A DNA stretch of 64,000 bases, taken from IMG/VR virus record IMGVR_UViG_3300028048_000106, positions 1-64,000 of that record. One strand, 5' to 3'. The DNA comes from a virus (taxonomy: Duplodnaviria > Caudoviricetes). The translations under genes were made by a program, and so were the position numbers. The notes beneath the pieces were generated by a model that saw only the letters and a list, made by a program, of their open reading frames with translations, made no database searches and was not told the origin of the DNA. Positions 7,764 to 20,059 of the stretch are shown here, piece after piece. The first letter of the stretch is position 1, and each line of letters begins with the position of its first letter.

Positions 7764-8294
7764 ATGGATACATTAAGATACACAAAAGTTAGAGAAGTGA
7801 AGAGCCCAGTCCGTGGGACTCCAGTTGCAGCAGGGATTGACTTCTTTGTCCCAACGTCTATTGACAAAGAGACATTTGAGAGCAAATGCAAGACTACTGG
7901 ATGTGGTGTTTTTGCTGAATACAATGAAGATGGAATGCTCACTCGAATTGAGCTTAAGCCTGGCGAGTCAGTCATGATCCCTTCAGGAATCAAGATGAAA
8001 GTCCCTTATGGCCATGCCTTAGTCTTCATGAACAAGTCTGGCATTGGCGCAAAGAAGCAGCTTGCTGTCCTTGCCTGTGTAATTGATGAAGACTACGAAG
8101 GTGAAGTGCACATAAATCTTGTCAACACTGGAAAGAACATCCAACAGATTGCTGCAGGTGACAAGATAGTTCAAGGCTTAGTCATTCCTGTCAACTATGC
8201 AGTGCCAGAAGAAGTTGAAAGTGAAGACACACTGTATAAGAACTCTACTTCTCAGCGAGGTGAAGGAGGGTTTGGGTCTACTGGAAGTCGCTGA
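7764..8294 (+). CDS. dut: dUTP diphosphatase (trimeric)
   Basis: AAGIDF, KSG, VIDEDYEGE, GDKIVQ, RGEGGFGSTG. Confidence 0.95.
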   Translation: MDTLRYTKVREVKSPVRGTPVAAGIDFFVPTSIDKETFESKCKTTGCGVFAEYNEDGMLTRIELKPGESVMIPSGIKMKVPYGHALVFMNKSGIGAKKQLAVLACVIDEDYEGEVHINLVNTGKNIQQIAAGDKIVQGLVIPVNYAVPEEVESEDTLYKNSTSQRGEGGFGSTGSR

Positions 8295-9085: not shown

Positions 9086-9874
9086 ATGTGTAGAATACTT
9101 CTAAAGGAAACACTATCTATGACAAAAGAAGCACTAGACTCAATCATCAACAACTCTGAATTCACAGAGTGCATAAATGAGGCTGCTCCACACCGTGTGA
9201 AGATCATCCAAGACATTGGCCCTCAAATGCGTGAAGTCCAAGAAGACTTCTTGCAGACAATGATTGCCGCCAACCATAGAGGCGTGTCAAAGATCATGGA
9301 GCGCCTTAAAGTAGACAAGAAAGATGCAGAAGCTAAAGAAGAGTACTCTAGGTGGAAGAAAGCTACGATGAATCTCTTTAGAGCTACATTGAAGACAATC
9401 CACCCAAATGAGAACCAAGTGCCAAGCATCAGCATGCTGTACACTGCTGGCAGTCTATTGACGTACATTGGCAAAGAAGACCTCATCACTAGTAATGAGA
9501 ACTATGACAAAGACAACCCTCTCAAGTTCAAGAAGTTTGAGGAGATGAACTCTTTCTTTGATGACGAGAATGTCCGTGGAAAGATGCAGCAGATATTCAT
9601 GGATGCTGATGAGATTCAAGGAGAGATGTGCAATGAAGCAGACGCAATCAAAAAAGACATCTACCAAAAGCTTCCAGTCTCTGTGCGGTATGACAAAGAG
9701 CTCAACAAGAAAGGCTTGAAAGAAGGCCATTTCCAAGCTCTTGTCCGCACTAAGGCAATGGGCCTCATCAAAGACAAAGACAAGTACACAAAGTATGTCT
9801 CTTTACAGGTTGAGAACTCAAACAACAACATTGACCGTGAAGAAGTGATTCTTGGCAAGACCGAGCAGATGTAA
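9086..9874 (+). CDS. hypothetical protein (start may be 9119)
   Basis: TAG-free ORF; AAGGA upstream of ATG 9119; terminator at 9886-9914. Confidence 0.7.
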   Translation: MCRILLKETLSMTKEALDSIINNSEFTECINEAAPHRVKIIQDIGPQMREVQEDFLQTMIAANHRGVSKIMERLKVDKKDAEAKEEYSRWKKATMNLFRATLKTIHPNENQVPSISMLYTAGSLLTYIGKEDLITSNENYDKDNPLKFKKFEEMNSFFDDENVRGKMQQIFMDADEIQGEMCNEADAIKKDIYQKLPVSVRYDKELNKKGLKEGHFQALVRTKAMGLIKDKDKYTKYVSLQVENSNNNIDREEVILGKTEQM

Positions 9875-9974: not shown

Positions 9975-11885
9975 ATGAAGAATGTAGTCATATTTGCTGG
10001 TGGGCATGGCGCCGTGAAGCTCCAGCAGTCTATTGCTAAGTGGGGTGGTCCAGGTGTTAATGTGCAGATCATCATATCAGCATATGACAATGCTAAGTCA
10101 ACACTAGCTTGCCGTCAAGTGTTTGACCACAAGATACTTGGTGTGTCAGACTTGAGGAAGAACCACATCACACAGTACAAGATACAGCAGTTTAGTGGCA
10201 GCATTAGTTCAAGTAATGCAACTACTGCTCAGCAGATATATGATTGGCTAGAGTATCGACTTCCAAAAGACTGGAACAAAAGCTTTGAAGAGACATATGC
10301 ATATGTCAAAGACACATATGTTGGCGAGCAAGCAAAGTACTTCTTCACAATATATGACCTTGAGACGCTGAAGCATGCTGTTGACAACTTCTTCTTGCAG
10401 CCTAAGGCAAAAGACATCAACTATGCTGACTTTGCTCTTTCAAACATCTTGTATGCATCATTGGCAAACATGAATGGCAACAGCCTTGAGACAGCTGGCA
10501 ACTTGATGTCTAAGATGCTTGGCATAGAAGACAATGTCCATCTCATCTCAAATGTGAACTTGTACCTCCACGCAAAGAGCGTCAATGGGCATGACCTCAA
10601 TGATGAAGATGTCATGTCACAGTGGAAGAGTGCTTCTGACCCTATTGACCATCTATACTATGTAGACAGAGATGGAAATGAGCACTACCCAACAGTTGAT
10701 GAGCTTCCAGACAGGACAATTGACCCAACACATAAGTGTGAGAAGCTGCTTGACAATGCTGACATCATCATCTTCTCAAGTGGAAGCCAATGGACGTCTT
10801 TGATACCTACTTATGCACAGCATGGCTTCAATGCCATCATCAAGAGGTCGAAGGCAAAGAAGTACTTGGTGATGAACAATGTTGAAGACAGAGACCTCTA
10901 TGGGTGCAATGCTGACTGGATATTGGCACAAGTCAGCAAGTATGTTGACATTGATGACTTCACTGTTGTCTTGAACTCAAATGCCATTAGCACTCTAGAC
11001 CATCTAGAAGACAAGAAGTGGAAGAGCATTACTGCGCCATTGTCTGACTCTAAAGGTGACCCTGTGCATAACCTTGAGGTGTTCAAGGTGATAATGGCTG
11101 ACTATGTCAAGCCATTGACAGACTACTCACACAAGTTTGTGTTTGACTTTGATGACACGCTTTGGTCAACAAAGACAATCGATGCTGACTTAGATGCTTG
11201 TGCAGACAACCTCATCCGTTTTGCAGAATTGAAGAAGAAAGGCATTTGGTCAATGATATTCAGTGGGAACAAGATAGCACGGTTCAAGAAGCTGTTTGAC
11301 AGCTATGCACATGCTGTTGGCAATGGCTCTACATTCAATGATGTCTTCTCACAGTTTTACTGCAACTTTGGCAACTCAAAGTACCACTTTGAAGATGGAA
11401 AGTTCTTGTTTGATGGGAAAGTGTTCAAGAACATATCAATGTTCAGCCACTACTTCAACTTAGTTGACTACTTAGTCAAGAGCTTGAACAAGAGCAAGTT
11501 GTTCTTGAACTTCAACACAAAGCTTGACTACTCTAACTTTGAGAACTGTGGTGATGTCAATATAGCAGTCTCTCCACTCTGCCACCGTGAGGAAGTGCTT
11601 CCAGTGTTCAATGAGCTCATTGATGAGTACAATGCATTCTACTATACCGACTTCCATGCATACATCAATGGAAACACGACAATTGACATCCTCTACAAAG
11701 ACTTTAACAAGGCATCATGCCTGAATGAAGTCCTCAGAGATGAGAAGTTCAACTACATTGGCGACAAGCTTGAAGATGGGAATGACGCATCAGTCAAGAC
11801 CATAAAGCTTGCAAACTGCATGTCAGTTGACGATGTCTATGACACAAACTTCTTGCTGAGAGCATTGGAGGCATTCATTGGATAA
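9975..11885 (+). CDS. YvcK/CofD (UPF0052) domain fused to HAD-IIB phosphomannomutase-like domain
   Basis: N: VVIFAGGHG, SAYDNAKST, SDLR, ADIIIFSSGSQWTSLIP; C: FVFDFDDTL, NGNTTIDI..FNKASCL, YIGDKLEDGND. Confidence 0.85.
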   Translation: MKNVVIFAGGHGAVKLQQSIAKWGGPGVNVQIIISAYDNAKSTLACRQVFDHKILGVSDLRKNHITQYKIQQFSGSISSSNATTAQQIYDWLEYRLPKDWNKSFEETYAYVKDTYVGEQAKYFFTIYDLETLKHAVDNFFLQPKAKDINYADFALSNILYASLANMNGNSLETAGNLMSKMLGIEDNVHLISNVNLYLHAKSVNGHDLNDEDVMSQWKSASDPIDHLYYVDRDGNEHYPTVDELPDRTIDPTHKCEKLLDNADIIIFSSGSQWTSLIPTYAQHGFNAIIKRSKAKKYLVMNNVEDRDLYGCNADWILAQVSKYVDIDDFTVVLNSNAISTLDHLEDKKWKSITAPLSDSKGDPVHNLEVFKVIMADYVKPLTDYSHKFVFDFDDTLWSTKTIDADLDACADNLIRFAELKKKGIWSMIFSGNKIARFKKLFDSYAHAVGNGSTFNDVFSQFYCNFGNSKYHFEDGKFLFDGKVFKNISMFSHYFNLVDYLVKSLNKSKLFLNFNTKLDYSNFENCGDVNIAVSPLCHREEVLPVFNELIDEYNAFYYTDFHAYINGNTTIDILYKDFNKASCLNEVLRDEKFNYIGDKLEDGNDASVKTIKLANCMSVDDVYDTNFLLRALEAFIG

Positions 11886-12684
11886 GACGCTGTTCATAGT
11901 TGCTGCTGGCTTGTCAACACGGTTCAATGGCAAGCCAAAGCACCTTGCCAAGATAAAAGGCATGCCTAACATTGAGCATACACTGCGGATGGCTAGCCCA
12001 TGGTACAACAGCATATATGTTGTGCTCAATGAGAAGGCAACTGAAGAGACTATAGAAGACACTAGAGCCATTGCATCAATGCATGGAGCTAGGCAGATCT
12101 TGATTCCATCTGGAAAAGGTGATGCGGATGCAGTCTTTCAATCGCTTGACAAGTCTGGCAATGGTGACTCATGCGTGTCAGTCTGCTGGGGAGATGCATG
12201 GTTCAAGAGCGCCAATGTCTTTAAGATTGCATCACAGGCTCTAGAAGAGAAAGACTACAGTAGCATTGTGTTTGACGCAATGTGCGCAATGGAAGAGAGC
12301 CCTTATGGCTGGTTCACCATAGACAATAGTGGAACAATACTAAAAGCAGAGTTTGCATCTGACTATGGCATAGAAAGTCCAGTTAATGGAGCATATGCTG
12401 CTCATGACCAATGCTTCTTCAACATCAATGTGCAGAACTTCAAAGAAGAGTTTGACCAGTATTCTAGATTTGCTGAAGCTGAAGTTGCATCACTTGAGCA
12501 CCTCATTGAGCAGCGCACTAGCATGGTAAAGCTCTCATTGAAGCATGAGATGTCATGGTACAAGATGATAAATTGGGCTAGCAAGATGAAAAGCAGCTTG
12601 AAGTCAACTGCAATAGTCTTAGCTGAGCCTGCTGCTTTGTCATTCAACACAGAAGAAGACTTGGAGAAGATAAGAGATGCATAA
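11878..12684 (+). CDS. sugar-phosphate nucleotidyltransferase (NTP_transferase/MobA fold)
   Basis: FIVAAGLSTRFNGKPKHL, GKGDADAV, VCWGD, SFNTEEDL. Confidence 0.85.
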   Translation: MDKTLFIVAAGLSTRFNGKPKHLAKIKGMPNIEHTLRMASPWYNSIYVVLNEKATEETIEDTRAIASMHGARQILIPSGKGDADAVFQSLDKSGNGDSCVSVCWGDAWFKSANVFKIASQALEEKDYSSIVFDAMCAMEESPYGWFTIDNSGTILKAEFASDYGIESPVNGAYAAHDQCFFNINVQNFKEEFDQYSRFAEAEVASLEHLIEQRTSMVKLSLKHEMSWYKMINWASKMKSSLKSTAIVLAEPAALSFNTEEDLEKIRDA

Positions 12685-13873
12685 GCTGGCAGTCTGCAAG
12701 ATAGGTGGACGGATATCATTTGGAAAAGTAGACAAAGATGGCAATGTCTCAAACGCAAGAGACACTAGTGGAGGCAATGGTGAGGCAAAGGCCATCATTG
12801 ACATTGCGCAGAAGTCAGGTAAGTTTGACATAACAATCTTGACTAAGACTACATCAAAAGACTACTTCCCTAAAGAGTACAAGTTTGTTGATGCTGTCAA
12901 GCTGCTACAAGAAGACAAGATAGAGAGCTTTCTTGCTAAGCAGGACTTTGATGTCTTGCTTCTCATAAATGGGTCAATAAACTGCTTTGGCGGTGCTGAG
13001 CAGTCAATAATGTCAGACTTGGCACTGTACAAGGCAATGCACTTCTTCAAGAAGAAGATTGTCTTCTGCTCTTGTGACATATGCATCCCTTTTGTGCCAG
13101 ACATCTGGAAGACGGTTGCTCCAAAAGAGTGGAGCAGCAAGTACAAGCAAGAAGACTTTGACTTGGGTGGCAAGACATTCTATATGCTCACCCAAGCTAG
13201 AGATCTTGACGCGCTGCACAAGATTCTAGACTCTAAGAAAGGCAATGTCTTCAAGAGAGAGAACATTGACAACTTCTCTTTTGAGAAGTTTCCATGTGAG
13301 AATGCCATACAGTATGTAGATGTCAACCCTAGTCCAGCATACGATCTTCTCTATGGAGGCACCCTAAGAGCCGGGAGACGCATCAAGAAGATAGTCAATT
13401 GGTACTACAACCACCCAAGCCTCAATATAGAGCTCTTCGGGAACATGGACCAAGACAAGATAGATGCAGTTGCAAAGAAAGTCTATGGGATATTCCATAA
13501 GCCAAGCTTCAATGACCCCGTGAACTATCTAGAGAATAGCAAGAAGATGAACCAAGCTCTAGCAACAATAGTCATTGGCGATGACATGTATGAAGAGACT
13601 AGCACTGTACAGCAGCGAGCATATGAAGCAATGTGCGCAAATGTCGTCACATTCATTGATGAGAAGCTAGACAAGCTACACAATGTGTATGGGTTCAATC
13701 CAGGTCTAGAGAAGTTCTTGTATCTACAGAGCCCTAGCCAGCTTGAGAAGCGAATGCAGATGCTAAAAGACACACCAGAGCTTCGTGCTAAAATCTTATC
13801 TCTACAGCAGAAGATAATCTCATTTGACAGACAAGAGTGGTATAATGTTTTTGCAGAAAAACTGCTGAAATGA
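12677..13873 (+). CDS. DNA beta-glucosyltransferase (T4 Bgt)-like glycosyltransferase
   Basis: YDLLYGGTLRAGRR..LNIELFGN..ALATIVIGD..RAYEAMCANVVTFIDEKLD parallels T4 Bgt DVIYGGSFRSGQR..LNIEFFGN..AALIIGD..RVWETMASDAVMLIDEEFD. Confidence 0.85.
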   Translation: MHKLAVCKIGGRISFGKVDKDGNVSNARDTSGGNGEAKAIIDIAQKSGKFDITILTKTTSKDYFPKEYKFVDAVKLLQEDKIESFLAKQDFDVLLLINGSINCFGGAEQSIMSDLALYKAMHFFKKKIVFCSCDICIPFVPDIWKTVAPKEWSSKYKQEDFDLGGKTFYMLTQARDLDALHKILDSKKGNVFKRENIDNFSFEKFPCENAIQYVDVNPSPAYDLLYGGTLRAGRRIKKIVNWYYNHPSLNIELFGNMDQDKIDAVAKKVYGIFHKPSFNDPVNYLENSKKMNQALATIVIGDDMYEETSTVQQRAYEAMCANVVTFIDEKLDKLHNVYGFNPGLEKFLYLQSPSQLEKRMQMLKDTPELRAKILSLQQKIISFDRQEWYNVFAEKLLK

Positions 13874-13874
13874 C

Positions 13875-14312
13875 ATGGACCAAAAGAAGCTAGACAACTA
13901 CTTTATGGGAGTAGCAAAGCTGACTGCTCAGCTTTCTCATGCTAGACGCACTAAAGTTGGTGCAGTCATGACTAAAGACAACCGCATCATAAGTGTTGGT
14001 TACAATGGGACAGTGCGTGGAGATGACAACAACTGTGAAGACGAGCTTCCAGATGGATCACTAGTCACAAAGAACACAGTTGTCCATGCTGAGATGAATG
14101 TGCTTTGCTTCTGCGCAAAGACTGAGATTGAAAGTGATGGAGCAACAATATACTTGACGCTTTCACCATGTGCAAACTGTGCATTGGCTATGATTCAGTC
14201 AGGGATAAAGCGAGTTGTCTACCTTGAGCAGTATAGAGACTTAAGCGGTGTGAAGATACTAGAGCAGGCTGGAGTAGAAGTAGAGAAGTTTGCTGACATG
14301 CAGCTATTATGA
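13875..14312 (+). CDS. dCMP deaminase
   Basis: VGAV, GYNG, VHAEMN, LSPCANCA. Confidence 0.92.
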   Translation: MDQKKLDNYFMGVAKLTAQLSHARRTKVGAVMTKDNRIISVGYNGTVRGDDNNCEDELPDGSLVTKNTVVHAEMNVLCFCAKTEIESDGATIYLTLSPCANCALAMIQSGIKRVVYLEQYRDLSGVKILEQAGVEVEKFADMQLL

Positions 14313-14337
14313 CAGCTATAGCATGTATATTTTAAAC

Positions 14338-15057
14338 ATGAAATTGTGTATTCCAGTCTGTGTTAGTTTTTAGACAGGCGTTCCAATTGAGTTGACTTAG
14401 CCACCATATGTGTTAGTTGGTGCAGGTGGGTTTAAGCAAGATGGCATCTAGTTTTTTGATAATGATGGCATAAACATATCATCATACAATCTATATCTAA
14501 ATGAGATGAGTGTGGTATATTGGATGGCAAAGAACTATGCTAAGCTTAGCAGTCCAGACTATGTTGGCCTTGCTCATTATCGTAGAAGACTTGTCCATGA
14601 GGACTATATGCTTTAGCCAAATGCAATTGTCTGTCATGCTGAGAACTACAAGATACCTTTATATAAGCACTACTGTATCTACCATGTCAAAGCTGATCTT
14701 GACTTCACAGTCAATATGGTCTAGAAGAACTTCTCGAAGTAGATGTTCAAATCATTTATTGACTTTTTGAACTAGACATACTCATTTGAGAGAAATCTAT
14801 ACATAATGCCAAAAGACAAGTTTTTTGAGTATTCAGATTTCATCTGCAAGTGTATAGATATCTTCATTAAAGACTTGTTTTAGAACAGTGACATTGCTTA
14901 TAGAGATAAGTACTAGAGACGTGCTATGGGATTCTTGTGTGAGAGGCTCACTAGCTTTTGGATATATGACTAGATGGTGCAAGGCAAGTCAACATTGATA
15001 CTGACATAGGAGTAGATATTTGACTTAGAGTCGCCATATCAACGAGAGTCAATATGA
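14338..15057 (+). CDS. DUF4422-family glycosyltransferase-associated protein (12 TAG codons)
   Basis: DNDGINISSYN..LNEMSVVYW..DYVGLAHYRR..Y(TAG)RRAMGFLCERL; TGA overlaps next ATG. Confidence 0.85.
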
Positions 15058-15824
15058 AGAGCGCACTTGTATGCATAGCAAAGAATGAAGACCACTACAT
15101 TGATGAGTGGCTGCAGTACCATCTAAAGCTTGGATTCTCAAGCATATTCGTGTACTAGAACAACTGGCGGTATGCTGGCAACAAGTCAGCATATGGAAGT
15201 TGTGCAATTTGGATAGACTTTGATGGCGAAGCAATGCAGATGAAGGCTTACAATGACTTCATTGACAAGCACAACAGTGAATATGACTTTGCAGCATTCT
15301 TTGATGTTGATGAGTTCTTGTGCTTGAAGAAAGACAAGTCACTAGAGAGCTTCTTGAGCAGATATGCTGACATATATGGTGTTGGAGTGAATTGGCGAGT
15401 GTTTGGAGACAATGGCCTAACATCAGTAGAGAGTGGTAGCTACTCACTGTTGAATAGATTCACAAAGTGCCAGGCAAAGCTTGACAAGCACATAAAGACA
15501 ATACTCAACTTGATGATGTCAAAGAACATGTTCCACTTTGTGAACCCTCATTTTGTAGATGCATCATTGAAGTATGATGTCATATTAGATGTTGACAAGA
15601 CTCACGTCATACATGGGCCATGGAATGAGAACTGCTAGACTTAGATTGCATAGCTTAACCACTACCACTCTAAGACATGGCCAGAATTCCAAGAGAAGAT
15701 GGCGCGTGGCAAGGCAGACACACTCAAGTCGCATCCAAAATACAACTACCTTAGCTCTGACTTCATGCTGCACAACTACAATGACATTGAAGACTTCACT
15801 GCAAGAAATTTCATGGAAGATTAA
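15054..15824 (+). CDS. GT2/GT92-like glycosyltransferase (TAG-recoded)
   Basis: CIAKNEDHYIDEWLQYHLKLGF, FFDVDEFL, NWRVFG, IA(TAG)LNHY. Confidence 0.85.
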
Positions 15825-15847
15825 AAACTGGCATAGGAATCACAGAA

Positions 15848-16675
15848 ATGATTGATTGGAAAAAGTATTTTGACTAGGTATTTGTGCTACATTATGCTGG
15901 TTATACAGAAATAGAAGACAAGCTAAATGCTGAATTATCACGTGTTGGACTAGTTGACAGTGGAATACTGACTATCCACAACAATATATCATCGCCATTC
16001 TTAAGCATACTTCAGCGTAACATAAACTGTGACAATGTTCCAAATGACATGCGACCATCATCATTTTCATGCTCATTTGGGCATTATACTATAATGAAGA
16101 TAGCTGAGCTGAAAGGCTACAGTAGAATTCTCATCTTAGAAGATGATATTGCTTTCTTGAAAGACGTTGGCAAAATTGAGTCAATTCTAGATGCTGCAGC
16201 GGCGGAAGTCCCAGACTATGATGTGTGCTTGTTCTCCCACTTCATGTCGCCTTGTCCACGCAGTGTGTCAGACATATAGAAGTATGCAGATGAGATGCAT
16301 TAGTGCCAAGCTCTCAACAAGTACTTCATACCATACACATCTTCTTCGGCACCTGTTGCATCAGGTGCTGCATATGGGCTATCTAGAAAAGGGCTAGTCT
16401 GCCTACGTGGGCTGTATGAGCACTAGATGCAGATAGCAGACATGATATTCAGAAACTAGCCATACCTCAAAGATGGTAATGTTGATGGCTTCCATGACAT
16501 TATCTTGAGTAGCTTGTCTCGTTTCTACTGCAGATGTCCAATAGGGATCTAGAACAACATCAAGCAGTCTGTAACAGGTGAGATACTGAAAGATGGCTTC
16601 TCATAGATATTAGCTGCTTAGAAGAAATTAGCAGAATGTGTTGGCATAAACTATGGTGAATATAGCTTCTCTTGA
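15848..16675 (+). CDS. GT25-like glycosyltransferase (TAG-recoded)
   Basis: SCSFGH, ILILEDDI, GAAYGLSRKG; continuous to TGA 16675. Confidence 0.8.
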
Positions 16676-16812
16676 CATCTATGGGCATGGCTTTAGGCAA
16701 TAAGTTCTCTAGAATAATGCATGCACAATAGTGGGTAGATGAGTAGGTTGGAATACACTACAATGACTGCAATTTTGATGCTTAATTGTGCCTACATTAA
16801 TATAATCTTAAC

Positions 16813-17337
16813 ATGTTAAACATAGATCCAAAGTTTCCAATAGTAATCGTTGAAGGATGCGATGCGAGTGGCAAGTCGACACTCATCAATAAGCTCATGG
16901 AGCGCCACCCTAACAACTGCTATCTCCACTGTGCAGTGACAAATGACATAAACTCACTCCACCAAAATGCAATTGACACTGCTCTAGTGGCATCTCAAGA
17001 GCGGTGGGTGTTCATTGACCGTCTGCATCTTTCAGAGACAATATATGGGACAGTGTTCCGCAATGGCCCTTCATATGATGTTGCGGCATTTGACAAGATG
17101 ATCACTGATGGCATATCTACACTCAAGAAGATCCTCTGCACTGTTGACAAAGAGACTGCTCTTGCAAAGCACGCAGAAAGAAAAGACAAAGAGATGTTTG
17201 ATGACATATCAAAGGTGTATGATCTATATGCAGATGTTGCAAAGAATGACAAGTCATGGACAGTCTATAATTGGAAGACTGACACAATAGACTTAGACAT
17301 GCTTGAAGTCAAGCACAACTCAAAGGAGATCAACTAA
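16813..17337 (+). CDS. dNMP/thymidylate kinase-like P-loop kinase
   Basis: IVEGCDASGKST, FIDRLHLSETIYG. Confidence 0.85.
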   Translation: MLNIDPKFPIVIVEGCDASGKSTLINKLMERHPNNCYLHCAVTNDINSLHQNAIDTALVASQERWVFIDRLHLSETIYGTVFRNGPSYDVAAFDKMITDGISTLKKILCTVDKETALAKHAERKDKEMFDDISKVYDLYADVAKNDKSWTVYNWKTDTIDLDMLEVKHNSKEIN

Positions 17338-18206
17338 TGAAAATGATAGTAGGTACAAGCTTTGCAGAAGTGTATGACAAGGCAATGGACATGCTGCTTA
17401 ACAACTATGAGTACAAGACAGCACCACGTGGACTTGACATACATGAGTGCTTGAATGTTGGACTATGCATCGAAGACCCAACAAAGAACTTGTTCAAGTA
17501 TGAAAACAAGAGCTTGACTCTTCCAACAGGGTATGTGAAGAAAGAGATGTGCCTATATCTTCTTGGAAGTGATGATGCAAGAGACTTCTCAAAGGCATCT
17601 AAGTTTTGGGACAACATCAAGACAGACAAAGGCAAGATAAACTCAGCATATGGCAACTTGATATTCAATGCAAGCCTAAAAGATGGCCGTAGCCAATTTG
17701 ACTGGGCATTTGACTGCTTGAAGAATGACAAAGACTCGCGGCAGTCTTTCATGAGGTACAACAACACTTGCCACCAATATGATGGAAACAAAGATGTGCC
17801 TTGCACATTCATCCAGATGTTCCACATACGAGACAATAAGCTCCACACAACAGTTGAGATGAGAAGCAATGATGTGATAAAAGGGACAACATATGACATT
17901 CCAAGCTTCATCTTGTTCCAAAGGCTCATGCTCCTTAGGCTAAGAGAAGTCTATCCAGACCTTGAGATGGGGACTTACACGCACTTTGCAAACTCTCTCC
18001 ACTTGTACTCATCTGACTTTGAGCTAGTTGAGAAGAGACTAGACAGCCAAATTCTAGAGAATTCTTATCCATTTCCAAATGACTGGCATTGCGTTAAGTC
18101 AGAAGATGCTCTAAGGTGCTTCGACACAAAAGTCAACAAACAAGATTGGCTTGTTGACTGGCAGTATCCAGAAAACAAAGACTTCTATGGATGGCTTTGC
18201 AATTAA
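17337..18206 (+). CDS. thymidylate-synthase-family enzyme, dCMP hydroxymethylase-like
   Basis: NSAYG, DSRQ, DVPCT, MRSNDVIKGTTYD (Asp at the dCMP/dUMP specificity position, as in T4 gp42), SLHLY. Confidence 0.85.
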   Translation: MKMIVGTSFAEVYDKAMDMLLNNYEYKTAPRGLDIHECLNVGLCIEDPTKNLFKYENKSLTLPTGYVKKEMCLYLLGSDDARDFSKASKFWDNIKTDKGKINSAYGNLIFNASLKDGRSQFDWAFDCLKNDKDSRQSFMRYNNTCHQYDGNKDVPCTFIQMFHIRDNKLHTTVEMRSNDVIKGTTYDIPSFILFQRLMLLRLREVYPDLEMGTYTHFANSLHLYSSDFELVEKRLDSQILENSYPFPNDWHCVKSEDALRCFDTKVNKQDWLVDWQYPENKDFYGWLCN

Positions 18207-18358: not shown

Positions 18359-20059
18359 ATGATTAGTAAAATATTTAGTCTTTATTTGTCAGATGACGTG
18401 TATCTAACATCATAGACATCAAGTAGCTATGAGTTATCATAGTTTTCTAATAAGATTTCAAGACAGCTCAGTAGCAAACTTGATTTGCATACTGGAGGGT
18501 CAATTTCTGGGGATGTTGACATTGTGGATGCTAATCTGTCAATCAACACATTTGAAAACATATATGATGTAGATGATGGTTAGTCACTAGCTGAAAAGCT
18601 AAATGCCAAGCAAGACAAGATCTTGTCAATAGATACTCTTACTACTGGAGTCTATGCATCGTAGCATGTCTATAGTGGCATCTATTTGTCTACTGGAAAT
18701 GGCACTAATCCAAAGCATTTAGACTACCCAAGCATAACAGCTGATGCAGTTATTGCTACAACAACTGACGTTAGCAGTTAGTTGAGTAGCTACCTCGACA
18801 AGTGCTGTGGCGGCGAAGTGTCCGGAGACATCTCCATATAGAATGCAAGCTTGTCTATCCTGTCAGGAAACTATATTCAGACGAGCACACCTGATGCTGT
18901 GGTCAACTACGCGTCTAAAAATGCGCTTATACAGGCCGATATTGATCCGCATTATGGAGACTCTTATGCTGGCACTAAGGCATTCTGCGTGCTTGGCCTT
19001 AGTTCAAATGTAAACTAGATCAAGCTCAGTGGAGACATCTAGGTCCTTAAAGACATTGTCGACGGGCGGCTGTCTGTTGGCAACATGCCAGTAGACATTA
19101 GCAAGAGCCGTTCACTACGCAATGTATTTGGAAAAGACACGTTTAAAGAAGGCGACCTGGTGACGGACGGCACAAGCATGTCGGCGGCGATGTTCTCGCT
19201 GACGCTCGACAACCGCGCGGCGTCGATGGCTTTTCACCTCTCGGCAGTAGATACCGATACGGGCATAGTCACGCTAAACGAGTCGCTAAAGGACGCGGAC
19301 GGCTTCGATGCGCTCGACGGCAGGCCATAGAGTTTCTTCGAAGATCTCTGGCTTAACGACGACAACGCGTTCTACCTTGTCGGCTTCCCTGAGCTCGGGA
19401 ATGCTAATGTTCCCAACAACTTCGGCCAGTTCGCGTCCGGCGGCAGCGTTCGCGCGATAGGCAGGCAGACGCACGCCGAGGGCCGCGACAGCATCGCTGA
19501 CGTACGGTATGCCCATGTTGAAGGATCACATTGCACTGCCGCTCATATGGCAACACACGCCGAAGGATTCAGGACGGTCGCTAACAAGCGCTACTCGCAT
19601 TCCGAAGGCGAAGTGACCAAGGCCGACGGACGCGCCGCTCACGCCGAGGGCAGATTGACTGAAGCTTCTGGAGTGAACAGCCATGCTTAGGGCAAGTCAA
19701 CTATTGCCAGCGGAGAGCAGTCATGCGCATTTGGATTGTCCACAAAATCTAAAGGAAAGAATACTTTCACCGCCGGGTATATGTCCGAAGCTAGCAAATG
19801 GGCGGACAATGCTTTTGTGATAGGACGATACAGCATGGCTGATGCTTATAATGGCAGTAACTCATTCGTCTGGCAAGGAATATCTAGCGGAGCGTCATAT
19901 TATAATTCAAATAGCAAAGGCTCGTTCAACGTCAACCCGCAGAATGGCCTTTCAGGCTTCTACATCGGCTCAGACAACTTCGTCCAGTGCGTCCTCTCGG
20001 CGGTGCAGTCTATGGACGAGACATAGATAAATGCGCTGAAGGCCGCGCTTGGACTATGA
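18359..20059 (+). CDS. tail fibre/adhesin with YadA-head-like HAEG repeats (TAG-recoded)
   Basis: One frame to TGA 20059; 14-aa repeats THAEG, AHVEG, THAEG, SHSEG, AHAEG, SHA(TAG)G; GTAAATA at 18324. Confidence 0.8.

Follow-up and report, generated by a model that had tools for sequence, protein, structure and literature searches.

A candidate locus for glycosylated 5-hydroxymethylcytosine DNA with a putative YvcK/GlmR-like sugar-donor module in a TAG-recoded jumbo phage

By coating their cytosines with sugars, phages evade restriction enzymes and CRISPR nucleases; which of these defences still work changes with every new sugar. In T4, whose 5-hydroxymethylcytosine (5hmC) pathway includes the thymidylate-synthase (TS) homologue gp42, a β-glucosyltransferase (BGT), a dCMP deaminase and a gp1-like kinase, the sugar comes from host UDP-glucose. 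Instead, in the arabinosyl-5-hydroxycytosine (5hoC) clusters of RB69 and DLP3, donor enzymes (a phosphatase and a nucleotidyltransferase) are encoded by the phage itself, beside a TS homologue, a thymidylate-kinase-like (Tmk-like) kinase and DNA glycosyltransferases, and extra transferases extend the sugar (PMC13326640). Here we describe a gene block located in the first 64 kb (hereafter, the window) of a 92-kb IMG/VR viral record, IMGVR_UViG_3300028048_000106, with a CheckV completeness of 34%. Its conserved genes (the cassette) join a T4-like part, ordinary in itself, to an uncharacterised donor module, made up of a fusion protein with a YvcK/GlmR-like and a HAD-IIB domain and of a GlmU-N-like nucleotidyltransferase (NTase). 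An earlier note, made from the sequence of this DNA, had taken the block for a DNA cytosine-modification locus, and the gp42-type residues of its TS homologue, together with the BGT homologue, support this claim; dedicated donor synthesis, instead, by which it set the block apart from T4, has a precedent in RB69 and DLP3, where the phage encodes such synthesis for arabinose (PMC13326640). We propose, with moderate confidence, that the locus builds glycosylated 5hmC DNA by using a dedicated nucleoside-diphosphate (NDP)-hexose donor made by the phage.

The window has in common with T4 the residue signature of gp42, the catalytic and UDP-binding residues of BGT and the dCMP deaminase, and differs from it in the kinase, which is Tmk-like, in the three-domain donor module encoded by the phage, and in that neither a dCTPase nor an α-glucosyltransferase was seen in the fragment. 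To assign the base, we relied on the residues described by Lee et al. (NAR 2026, PMC13326640) in ThyA numbering: the change of N177 to Asp gives dCMP specificity; an acidic residue in place of L143 gives a product other than methyl, since it admits water and leads to hydroxymethyl; and the change of D169 to Asn marks the 5-hydroxy-dCMP synthases, with Asn found in every 5hoC synthase tested. In an alignment of the window protein with T4 gp42, RB69 gp48, one true Td and 18 other cassette-linked TS homologues, the window protein has Asp at the equivalents of L143, D169 and N177 (DVPC, RSND and GTTYD, respectively), as does T4 gp42. The first of these lies three residues before the catalytic Cys, which is present (DVPCT aligned with DFMCT of T4), and the GTTYD motif, where an Asp at the specificity site had already been noticed, aligns with GFRND of T4 (Asp179). 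Asp is also found at positions 169 and 177 in all of the 18 other cassette-linked homologues (18/18), while RB69 gp48 has Asn at 169 (RSQN) and the true Td has Asn at 177; three further TS homologues, located elsewhere in cassette-bearing records, show Asp at all three positions. On the strength of these gp42-like residues at 143, 169 and 177, the TS homologue is predicted to be a dCMP hydroxymethylase with 5hm-dCMP as its product.

The kinase gene is translationally coupled to the TS homologue and its product, predicted to phosphorylate the modified dCMP, resembles only weakly (26%, 5e-5) the Tmk-like protein RB69 gp45, encoded beside the RB69 TS homologue (PMC13326640). This kinase prompted us to consider 5hoC, an option that the earlier note had left beside 5hmC and that also occurs in a wider explanation, in which the TS homologue would make 5-hydroxy-dCMP, as in RB69, or 5-methyl-dCMP, and the sugar would be attached differently or not at all. 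A Tmk-like kinase beside TS is indeed the arrangement of the 5hoC clusters of RB69, DLP3 and RL38J1, and the window TS falls in a divergent subclade with a C-terminal extension. However, 5hoC was rejected because the Asp is kept at the ThyA-169 position, by which the window enzyme also differs from the RB69 and DLP3 synthases; moreover, the acidic residue at the L143 position speaks against a methyl product, and the partner of the enzyme is a BGT homologue. We consider this explanation scarcely probable.

T4 b-gt and the BGT homologue of the window share 30% identity (E 2e-33), and a profile of 35 cassette-linked homologues matches the T4 structure 1bgt over its full length (1.7e-65). In these proteins E36, D134, R231, R235 and R314, equivalent to T4 Glu22, Asp100, Arg191, Arg195 and Arg269, are invariant, and E317 (T4 Glu272) is nearly so. 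Asp100 and Glu22 are the catalytic residues of T4 BGT, and Arg191, Arg195, Arg269 and Glu272 bind UDP; the NDP-sugar-binding machinery of the window protein is intact.

The closest relatives of the N-terminal domain of the fusion are the YvcK/GlmR proteins (UPF0052; PDB 2o2z, 2hzb, 2ppv, 2q7x), stand-alone, UDP-GlcNAc-binding proteins of ~320 aa found in a yvcJ-glmR-yvcL context. The domain has them as its top sequence and fold match and shares their GGxG, D-N-G-x-S-T-G and S/P-D-x-R-N motifs, but it is fused to a phosphomutase-like domain, lies outside such an operon, contains some 90 additional residues in a helical insert and always comes with an NTase as its partner. More than 130 full-length relatives of the fusion were found at E <1e-30 (50%-identity representatives). 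In a profile built from 50 sequences, the N-terminal domain matched YvcK/UPF0052 structures at 7e-29 to 9e-22 and CofD (3c3d) at 0.03, whereas the C-terminal domain matched phosphomannomutases (PMM) and the Lactococcus α-phosphoglucomutase at 2e-15 to 1e-9, and HAD phosphatases at 1e-4 or weaker. The fold predicted without an alignment was useless (pLDDT 35), but refolding with an alignment worked and gave an AlphaFold model with a pLDDT of 93, for which Foldseek reported TM scores of 0.77 with 2o2z, 0.64 with the PMM 2i54 and 0.65 with CofD 3c3d. By profile and by model, the N-terminal domain is nearer to YvcK/GlmR, within the CofD superfamily, than to CofD, and the C-terminal HAD-IIB domain is of the PMM/α-phosphoglucomutase type; the description of the protein as YvcK/CofD joined to a PMM-like HAD was right. 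Across 50 homologues, the HAD motifs DxDxT, S/T-G-N, K and GD..GND show little or no variation (D391, D393, T395, G431, K579 and G596 invariant; N432, N603 and D604 conserved in at least 90%), and D38 of the fusion corresponds in the alignment to the first of the two Asp residues in the DD motif of GlmR.

As for the NTase, its family profile finds the uridyltransferase domains of GlmU as the closest solved structures (5e-18), with no CofC or FbiD listed among the matches, and its consensus AAGxGSRMGxxxPKAL agrees with the G-x-G-(T/S)-R-x...PK signature; with 268 aa, it does not have the C-terminal left-handed β-helix acetyltransferase domain of GlmU. The identities of the domains suggested a sugar-phosphate mutase and a sugar-1-phosphate nucleotidyltransferase rather than a phosphotransfer of the kind known for coenzyme F420, in which CofC and CofD (FbiD/FbiA) take part. 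By analogy with the latter, the NTase would make an NDP-X and the CofD-like domain would put phospho-X on 5hmC, or on its sugar, as a phosphodiester adduct. We regard this as improbable: the fusion does carry a domain of the CofD superfamily (Pfam CofD) and, like CofD with CofC, always has a MobA-like nucleotidyltransferase as its partner, but the sequence signal for CofD is weak and the fold score lower than for YvcK, the NTase matches GlmU and not CofC, the HAD domain is of the mutase type, and the window offers no F420 context. The analogy was dropped after these profile and fold comparisons and after inspection of the bacterial contexts described below.

The genes of the cassette recur together in 70 viral loci, which puts their linkage far beyond chance. 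In these IMG/VR loci, all containing the fusion, the NTase is beside the fusion or fused to it in ~59 of 70, a BGT homologue lies close upstream in ~44, and a TS homologue is found within 8 kb in ~30; moreover, the three records at least 58% complete and without a flanking TS all (3/3) have a gp42-type TS elsewhere. In a 284-kb contig whose fusion is 79% identical to that of the window, the same genes recur with hardly any change of order, and at fusion identities of 47%, 41% and 38% the block reads TS, fusion, NTase, BGT. This neighbourhood survey reveals the co-occurrence with BGT homologues, across distant phages, on which the earlier note had made its proposal depend. In five phage loci (L016, L032, L043, L064 and L078) the pair formed by the fusion and the NTase stands, with no BGT, beside a TET-associated glycosyltransferase (TAGT, PF20691), as known from the systems of Burke et al. 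(2021, PMC8256090), from which the window differs in using BGT and a TS homologue. The TAGT-coupled records, which are mostly incomplete, gave no match for TET or TS, and the TET control gave no signal in any genome. Most of the other viral loci lacking BGT are YvcK-HAD-NTase triple fusions of 764-837 aa with no BGT nearby (L037, L042, L046, L048, L050, L052, L059, L060, L065 and L071), of which several come from giant-virus (GVMAG) bins, and in P0126 a GT2 glycosyltransferase is fused to the YvcK-like/HAD and NTase pair.

A cultured phage is also among the carriers of the cassette. Ralstonia phage RsoM2USA encodes TS (ORF10), dCMP deaminase (ORF8), BGT (ORF2), the fusion (ORF1) and the nucleotidyltransferase (ORF486), all deposited as hypothetical proteins; its linear record starts inside the cassette, with the fusion (L006:29-1888) and the nucleotidyltransferase (L007:10045-10794) at opposite ends. 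The RsoM2USA paper contains no data on DNA modification or DNA chemistry, and our literature search found no paper linking the YvcK/CofD-HAD family to phage DNA modification; the earlier note had remarked that such a domain is not known from the characterised phage base-modification pathways.

Outside viruses, the NTase adjoins the fusion in all of the full-length bacterial loci (37/37), and neither BGT nor TS was found in any of these (0/37). In 14 of the 37, from Clostridia, a GT2 synthase lies just upstream, 53% identical to the GT2 of Mycoplasma (Mycoplasmopsis) fermentans. In strain M64 of this organism, the locus is composed of the GT2, a CofD-family gene, a nucleotidyltransferase and a transposase; the CofD-family gene corresponds to the YvcK-like half only (340 aa, with TGA read as Trp) and the nucleotidyltransferase follows directly (L165:7319-9052), the two proteins being homologous to those of the window at 7e-38 and 2e-11, respectively. 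It has been reported that M. fermentans PG18 makes an undecorated β-1,6-glucofuranan capsule, that it has pgm and galU and no known route to a glucofuranose donor, and that the nucleotidyltransferase is a candidate for the glucofuranan pathway (Gaurivaud et al. 2024, PMC11658790). Thus, the two systems share homologous YvcK-like and NTase genes beside a glycosyltransferase, with the full fusion in the Clostridia version, but in M. fermentans the partner is a membrane GT2 synthase making a capsule and the CofD-family gene has no HAD domain.

Whatever the transferase and the acceptor, the pair is retained: its partners are BGT or TAGT in phages, GT2 in Clostridia and a fused GT2 in P0126; therefore, the pattern fits a donor-making, rather than an acceptor-modifying, module. 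The phospho-adduct that the earlier note had allowed is likewise disfavoured, given the YvcK, phosphomutase and GlmU-like nature of the domains and the service of the pair to transferases with acceptors other than DNA, including the locus of the undecorated glucan. We propose that the M. fermentans link makes an unusual donor plausible and speaks against a phosphate decoration, as a proof of neither. The same loci have a bearing on the target: the fusion and the NTase could act in a process unrelated to DNA, for instance the glycosylation of virion proteins or the making of a glycan of the host envelope, and lie next to BGT only because of shared early expression. In this respect, the pair occurs without DNA-modification genes in bacteria and in giant-virus bins, and the window holds three extra GT-A genes with no assigned target. 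This seems, however, very improbable, as what adjoins the pair in phages is specifically a DNA glycosyltransferase, BGT in ~44 of 70 loci and TAGT in 5 others, and the gene ends overlap in the window.

Read from the family memberships, residue signatures and gene linkage reported above, the pathway could be composed as follows. Before replication, the TS homologue would turn dCMP into 5hm-dCMP, which the adjacent Tmk-like kinase would phosphorylate, while the deaminase and the dUTPase-family enzyme would balance the pyrimidine pools. For the donor, the PMM/α-phosphoglucomutase-like HAD domain would convert a hexose 6-phosphate into the 1-phosphate and the GlmU-N-like enzyme would convert the latter into an NDP-hexose; the fused YvcK/GlmR-like domain would perform or control a further nucleotide-sugar step, and it is this step that would call for a dedicated module. 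Once the DNA is replicated, the BGT homologue would move the sugar onto 5hmC. The donor enzymes of the window come from families (YvcK-like, PMM-like) unrelated to those of RB69 and DLP3, and neither an arabinose-5-phosphate isomerase nor a kinase-nucleotidyltransferase fusion, as found in the latter, is present in the window.

A non-glucose sugar on DNA is plausible. Going one step further, the module might make a non-canonical NDP-hexose, with NDP-glucofuranose, the donor lacking in the known part of the M. fermentans glucofuranan pathway, as the leading candidate, put on 5hmC by BGT/TAGT-type enzymes; we offer this identity tentatively, and consider it on the unlikely side. The same modest likelihood is given to a simpler supply, in which the module does no more than raise the level of ordinary UDP-glucose or UDP-GlcNAc, as a phage pgm and galU/glmU with a GlmR-like helper, the DNA bears T4-like β-glucosyl-5hmC, and a large genome is fully glucosylated whatever the host pool. 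For such a supply the phosphomutase-like and GlmU-like identities would be enough to obtain a UDP-hexose, the UDP-binding and catalytic residues of T4 are kept in BGT, GlmR has been tied to UDP-GlcNAc supply (PMC10128056), and the known TAGT enzymes take UDP-Glc or UDP-GlcNAc (PMC8256090). On the other hand, the YvcK-like domain is always present and would be superfluous for a two-step supply, the same pair occurs in bacterial glycan operons, and it is found in M. fermentans, which has pgm and galU and yet makes glucofuranose.

Several observations weigh against a dedicated NDP-hexose donor for glycosylated 5hmC. Firstly, since a phosphomutase and a nucleotidyltransferase suffice for ordinary UDP-glucose, the sugar could be plain glucose. 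Secondly, the YvcK-like domain has no agreed enzymatic function, and for GlmR only an accessory uridyltransferase activity has been reported (PMC10128056). Moreover, the CofD-family gene may be dispensable in M. fermentans, because in PG18 it has been described as split into two pseudogenes (PMC11658790), and, as seen above, its M64 counterpart lacks the HAD domain. In enzymes of the PMM/α-phosphoglucomutase type, Arg residues of the cap domain hold the second phosphate of the substrate. In the fusion of the window, residue 525 (window 11547-11549), located in the E-N-R-G motif of the cap domain, is a Cys, as in one close relative, and an Arg in 45 of 50 homologues; residue 533 is a Ser in the same two proteins and a Lys in most homologues. 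These changes may point to a shifted substrate. Finally, no dCTPase of the MazG or PRA-PH families was found in the 92-kb fragment, which, at 34% completeness, covers too little of the genome to tell whether cytosine is fully replaced.

The features of the locus are listed in Table 1. All six TAG-free genes of the earlier note, from the fusion to the TS homologue, are present on the same strand at the positions that it gave, with overlaps of 8, 8 and 1 bases between gene ends. The fusion starts with the ATG (MKNVVIF) used by all homologues, and the NTase with a TTG located 8 bases inside the end of the fusion gene. Upstream, the dUTPase-family gene encodes a protein whose solved matches are ordinary trimeric dUTPases, with homologues close to the cassette in 9 other loci, and it probably serves the control of nucleotide pools.

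Table 1. Genes in and around the cassette, with window coordinates and best family matches.
Feature	Coordinates	Strand	Description
dUTPase-family gene	7764-8294	+	176 aa, TAG-free; Pfam dUTPase 8.4e-17
YvcK/GlmR-like + HAD-IIB fusion	9975-11885	+	636 aa; Pfam CofD 1.6e-18, NCBIfam HAD-IIB 4e-4
GlmU-N-like nucleotidyltransferase	11878-12684	+	268 aa; Pfam NTP_transf_3 8.8e-10, also NTP_transferase
T4 BGT homologue	12677-13873	+	Pfam T4-Gluco-transf 3.9e-11, PHROG beta-glucosyltransferase 1.7e-45
dCMP deaminase	13875-14312	+	Pfam dCMP_cyt_deam_1 4.6e-24; PHROG dCMP deaminase 5e-56
DUF4422-type glycosyltransferase-like gene	14290-15057	+	12 in-frame TAGs; DUF4422 1.5e-28 (TAG=Q)
GT-A glycosyltransferase-like gene (Glyco_tranf_2_4 / GT92)	15054-15824	+	4 in-frame TAGs; 4.4e-13 (TAG=Q)
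ORF without family assignment	15848-16675	+	275 aa, 8 in-frame TAGs; fragment: weak GT25 match
Thymidylate-kinase-like P-loop kinase	16813-17337	+	PHROG thymidylate kinase 5.6e-18
TS homologue	17337-18206	+	closest solved match T4 dCMP hydroxymethylase, 1.9e-16
ORF after the TS gene, probably a fibre or adhesin	18359-20059		566 aa, 11 in-frame TAGs, weak YadA-head repeat match

Between the deaminase and the kinase lies what had been described as a TAG-rich insert, which is 2.4 kb long (14290-16675) and contains three open reading frames (ORFs) that are open only when TAG is read through. The DUF4422-type gene, with a likely start at the ATG at 14323 or 14338, is missing from all the other cassette loci surveyed and has distant gut-phage matches only, and the Glyco_tranf_2_4 / GT92 gene has distant matches in Lak megaphages; the insert genes are lineage-specific and outside the conserved cassette. 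The three TAG-containing glycosyltransferase-like genes would be a late, lineage-specific add-on, which may extend the sugar. In the 79%-identical relative, a different TAG gene (L002:14041-15228; 395 aa, 8 TAGs, DUF7487 and zf-FCS) is located between BGT and the deaminase, while in the window the three glycosyltransferase genes come after the deaminase, and the junctions of the early operon seem to gather late TAG-bearing inserts. The same relative has an element made of a resolvase and an IS605 OrfB/TnpB (Cas12f-like TNB), between the dUTPase gene and the ORF preceding the fusion (L002:7228-9146); no resolvase/TnpB element was seen at the matching position of the window.

As for the source, a 92-kb record at this low completeness implies a jumbo phage, and its sequence indicates that the TAG stop codon is rewritten. 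Under the standard code, 86 ORFs of 100 aa or more are found in the window, separated by long gaps, most of which close once TAG is read as a residue; therefore TAG is recoded in part of the phage genes, as the earlier note had assumed. TAG readthrough was observed in many window genes, mostly late- or structural-looking ones, and at least 12 long ORFs, each with at least 8 in-frame TAGs, are open only with TAG=Q. No tRNA genes were found in window 1-64000. A megablast search against phages gave no match, the scan of IMG/VR with the single protein as query returned nothing, and for the ORF at 9086-9874 the Atlas search gave nothing usable.

The cassette is widespread, being present in at least 70 viral contigs, many longer than 200 kb, and since it occurs in the cultured phage RsoM2USA the chemistry of the DNA is directly measurable. 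The same two-gene module is found in glycan operons of gut Clostridia, in giant-virus bins and in the glucofuranan locus of M. fermentans; thus, working it out once would tell what a large branch of the YvcK/CofD superfamily, so far unstudied, does and might reveal how bacteria make glucofuranose donors. If the donor were NDP-glucofuranose, many jumbo phages would carry a new DNA base bearing a furanosyl hexose, and the YvcK-like branch would obtain its first catalytic role.

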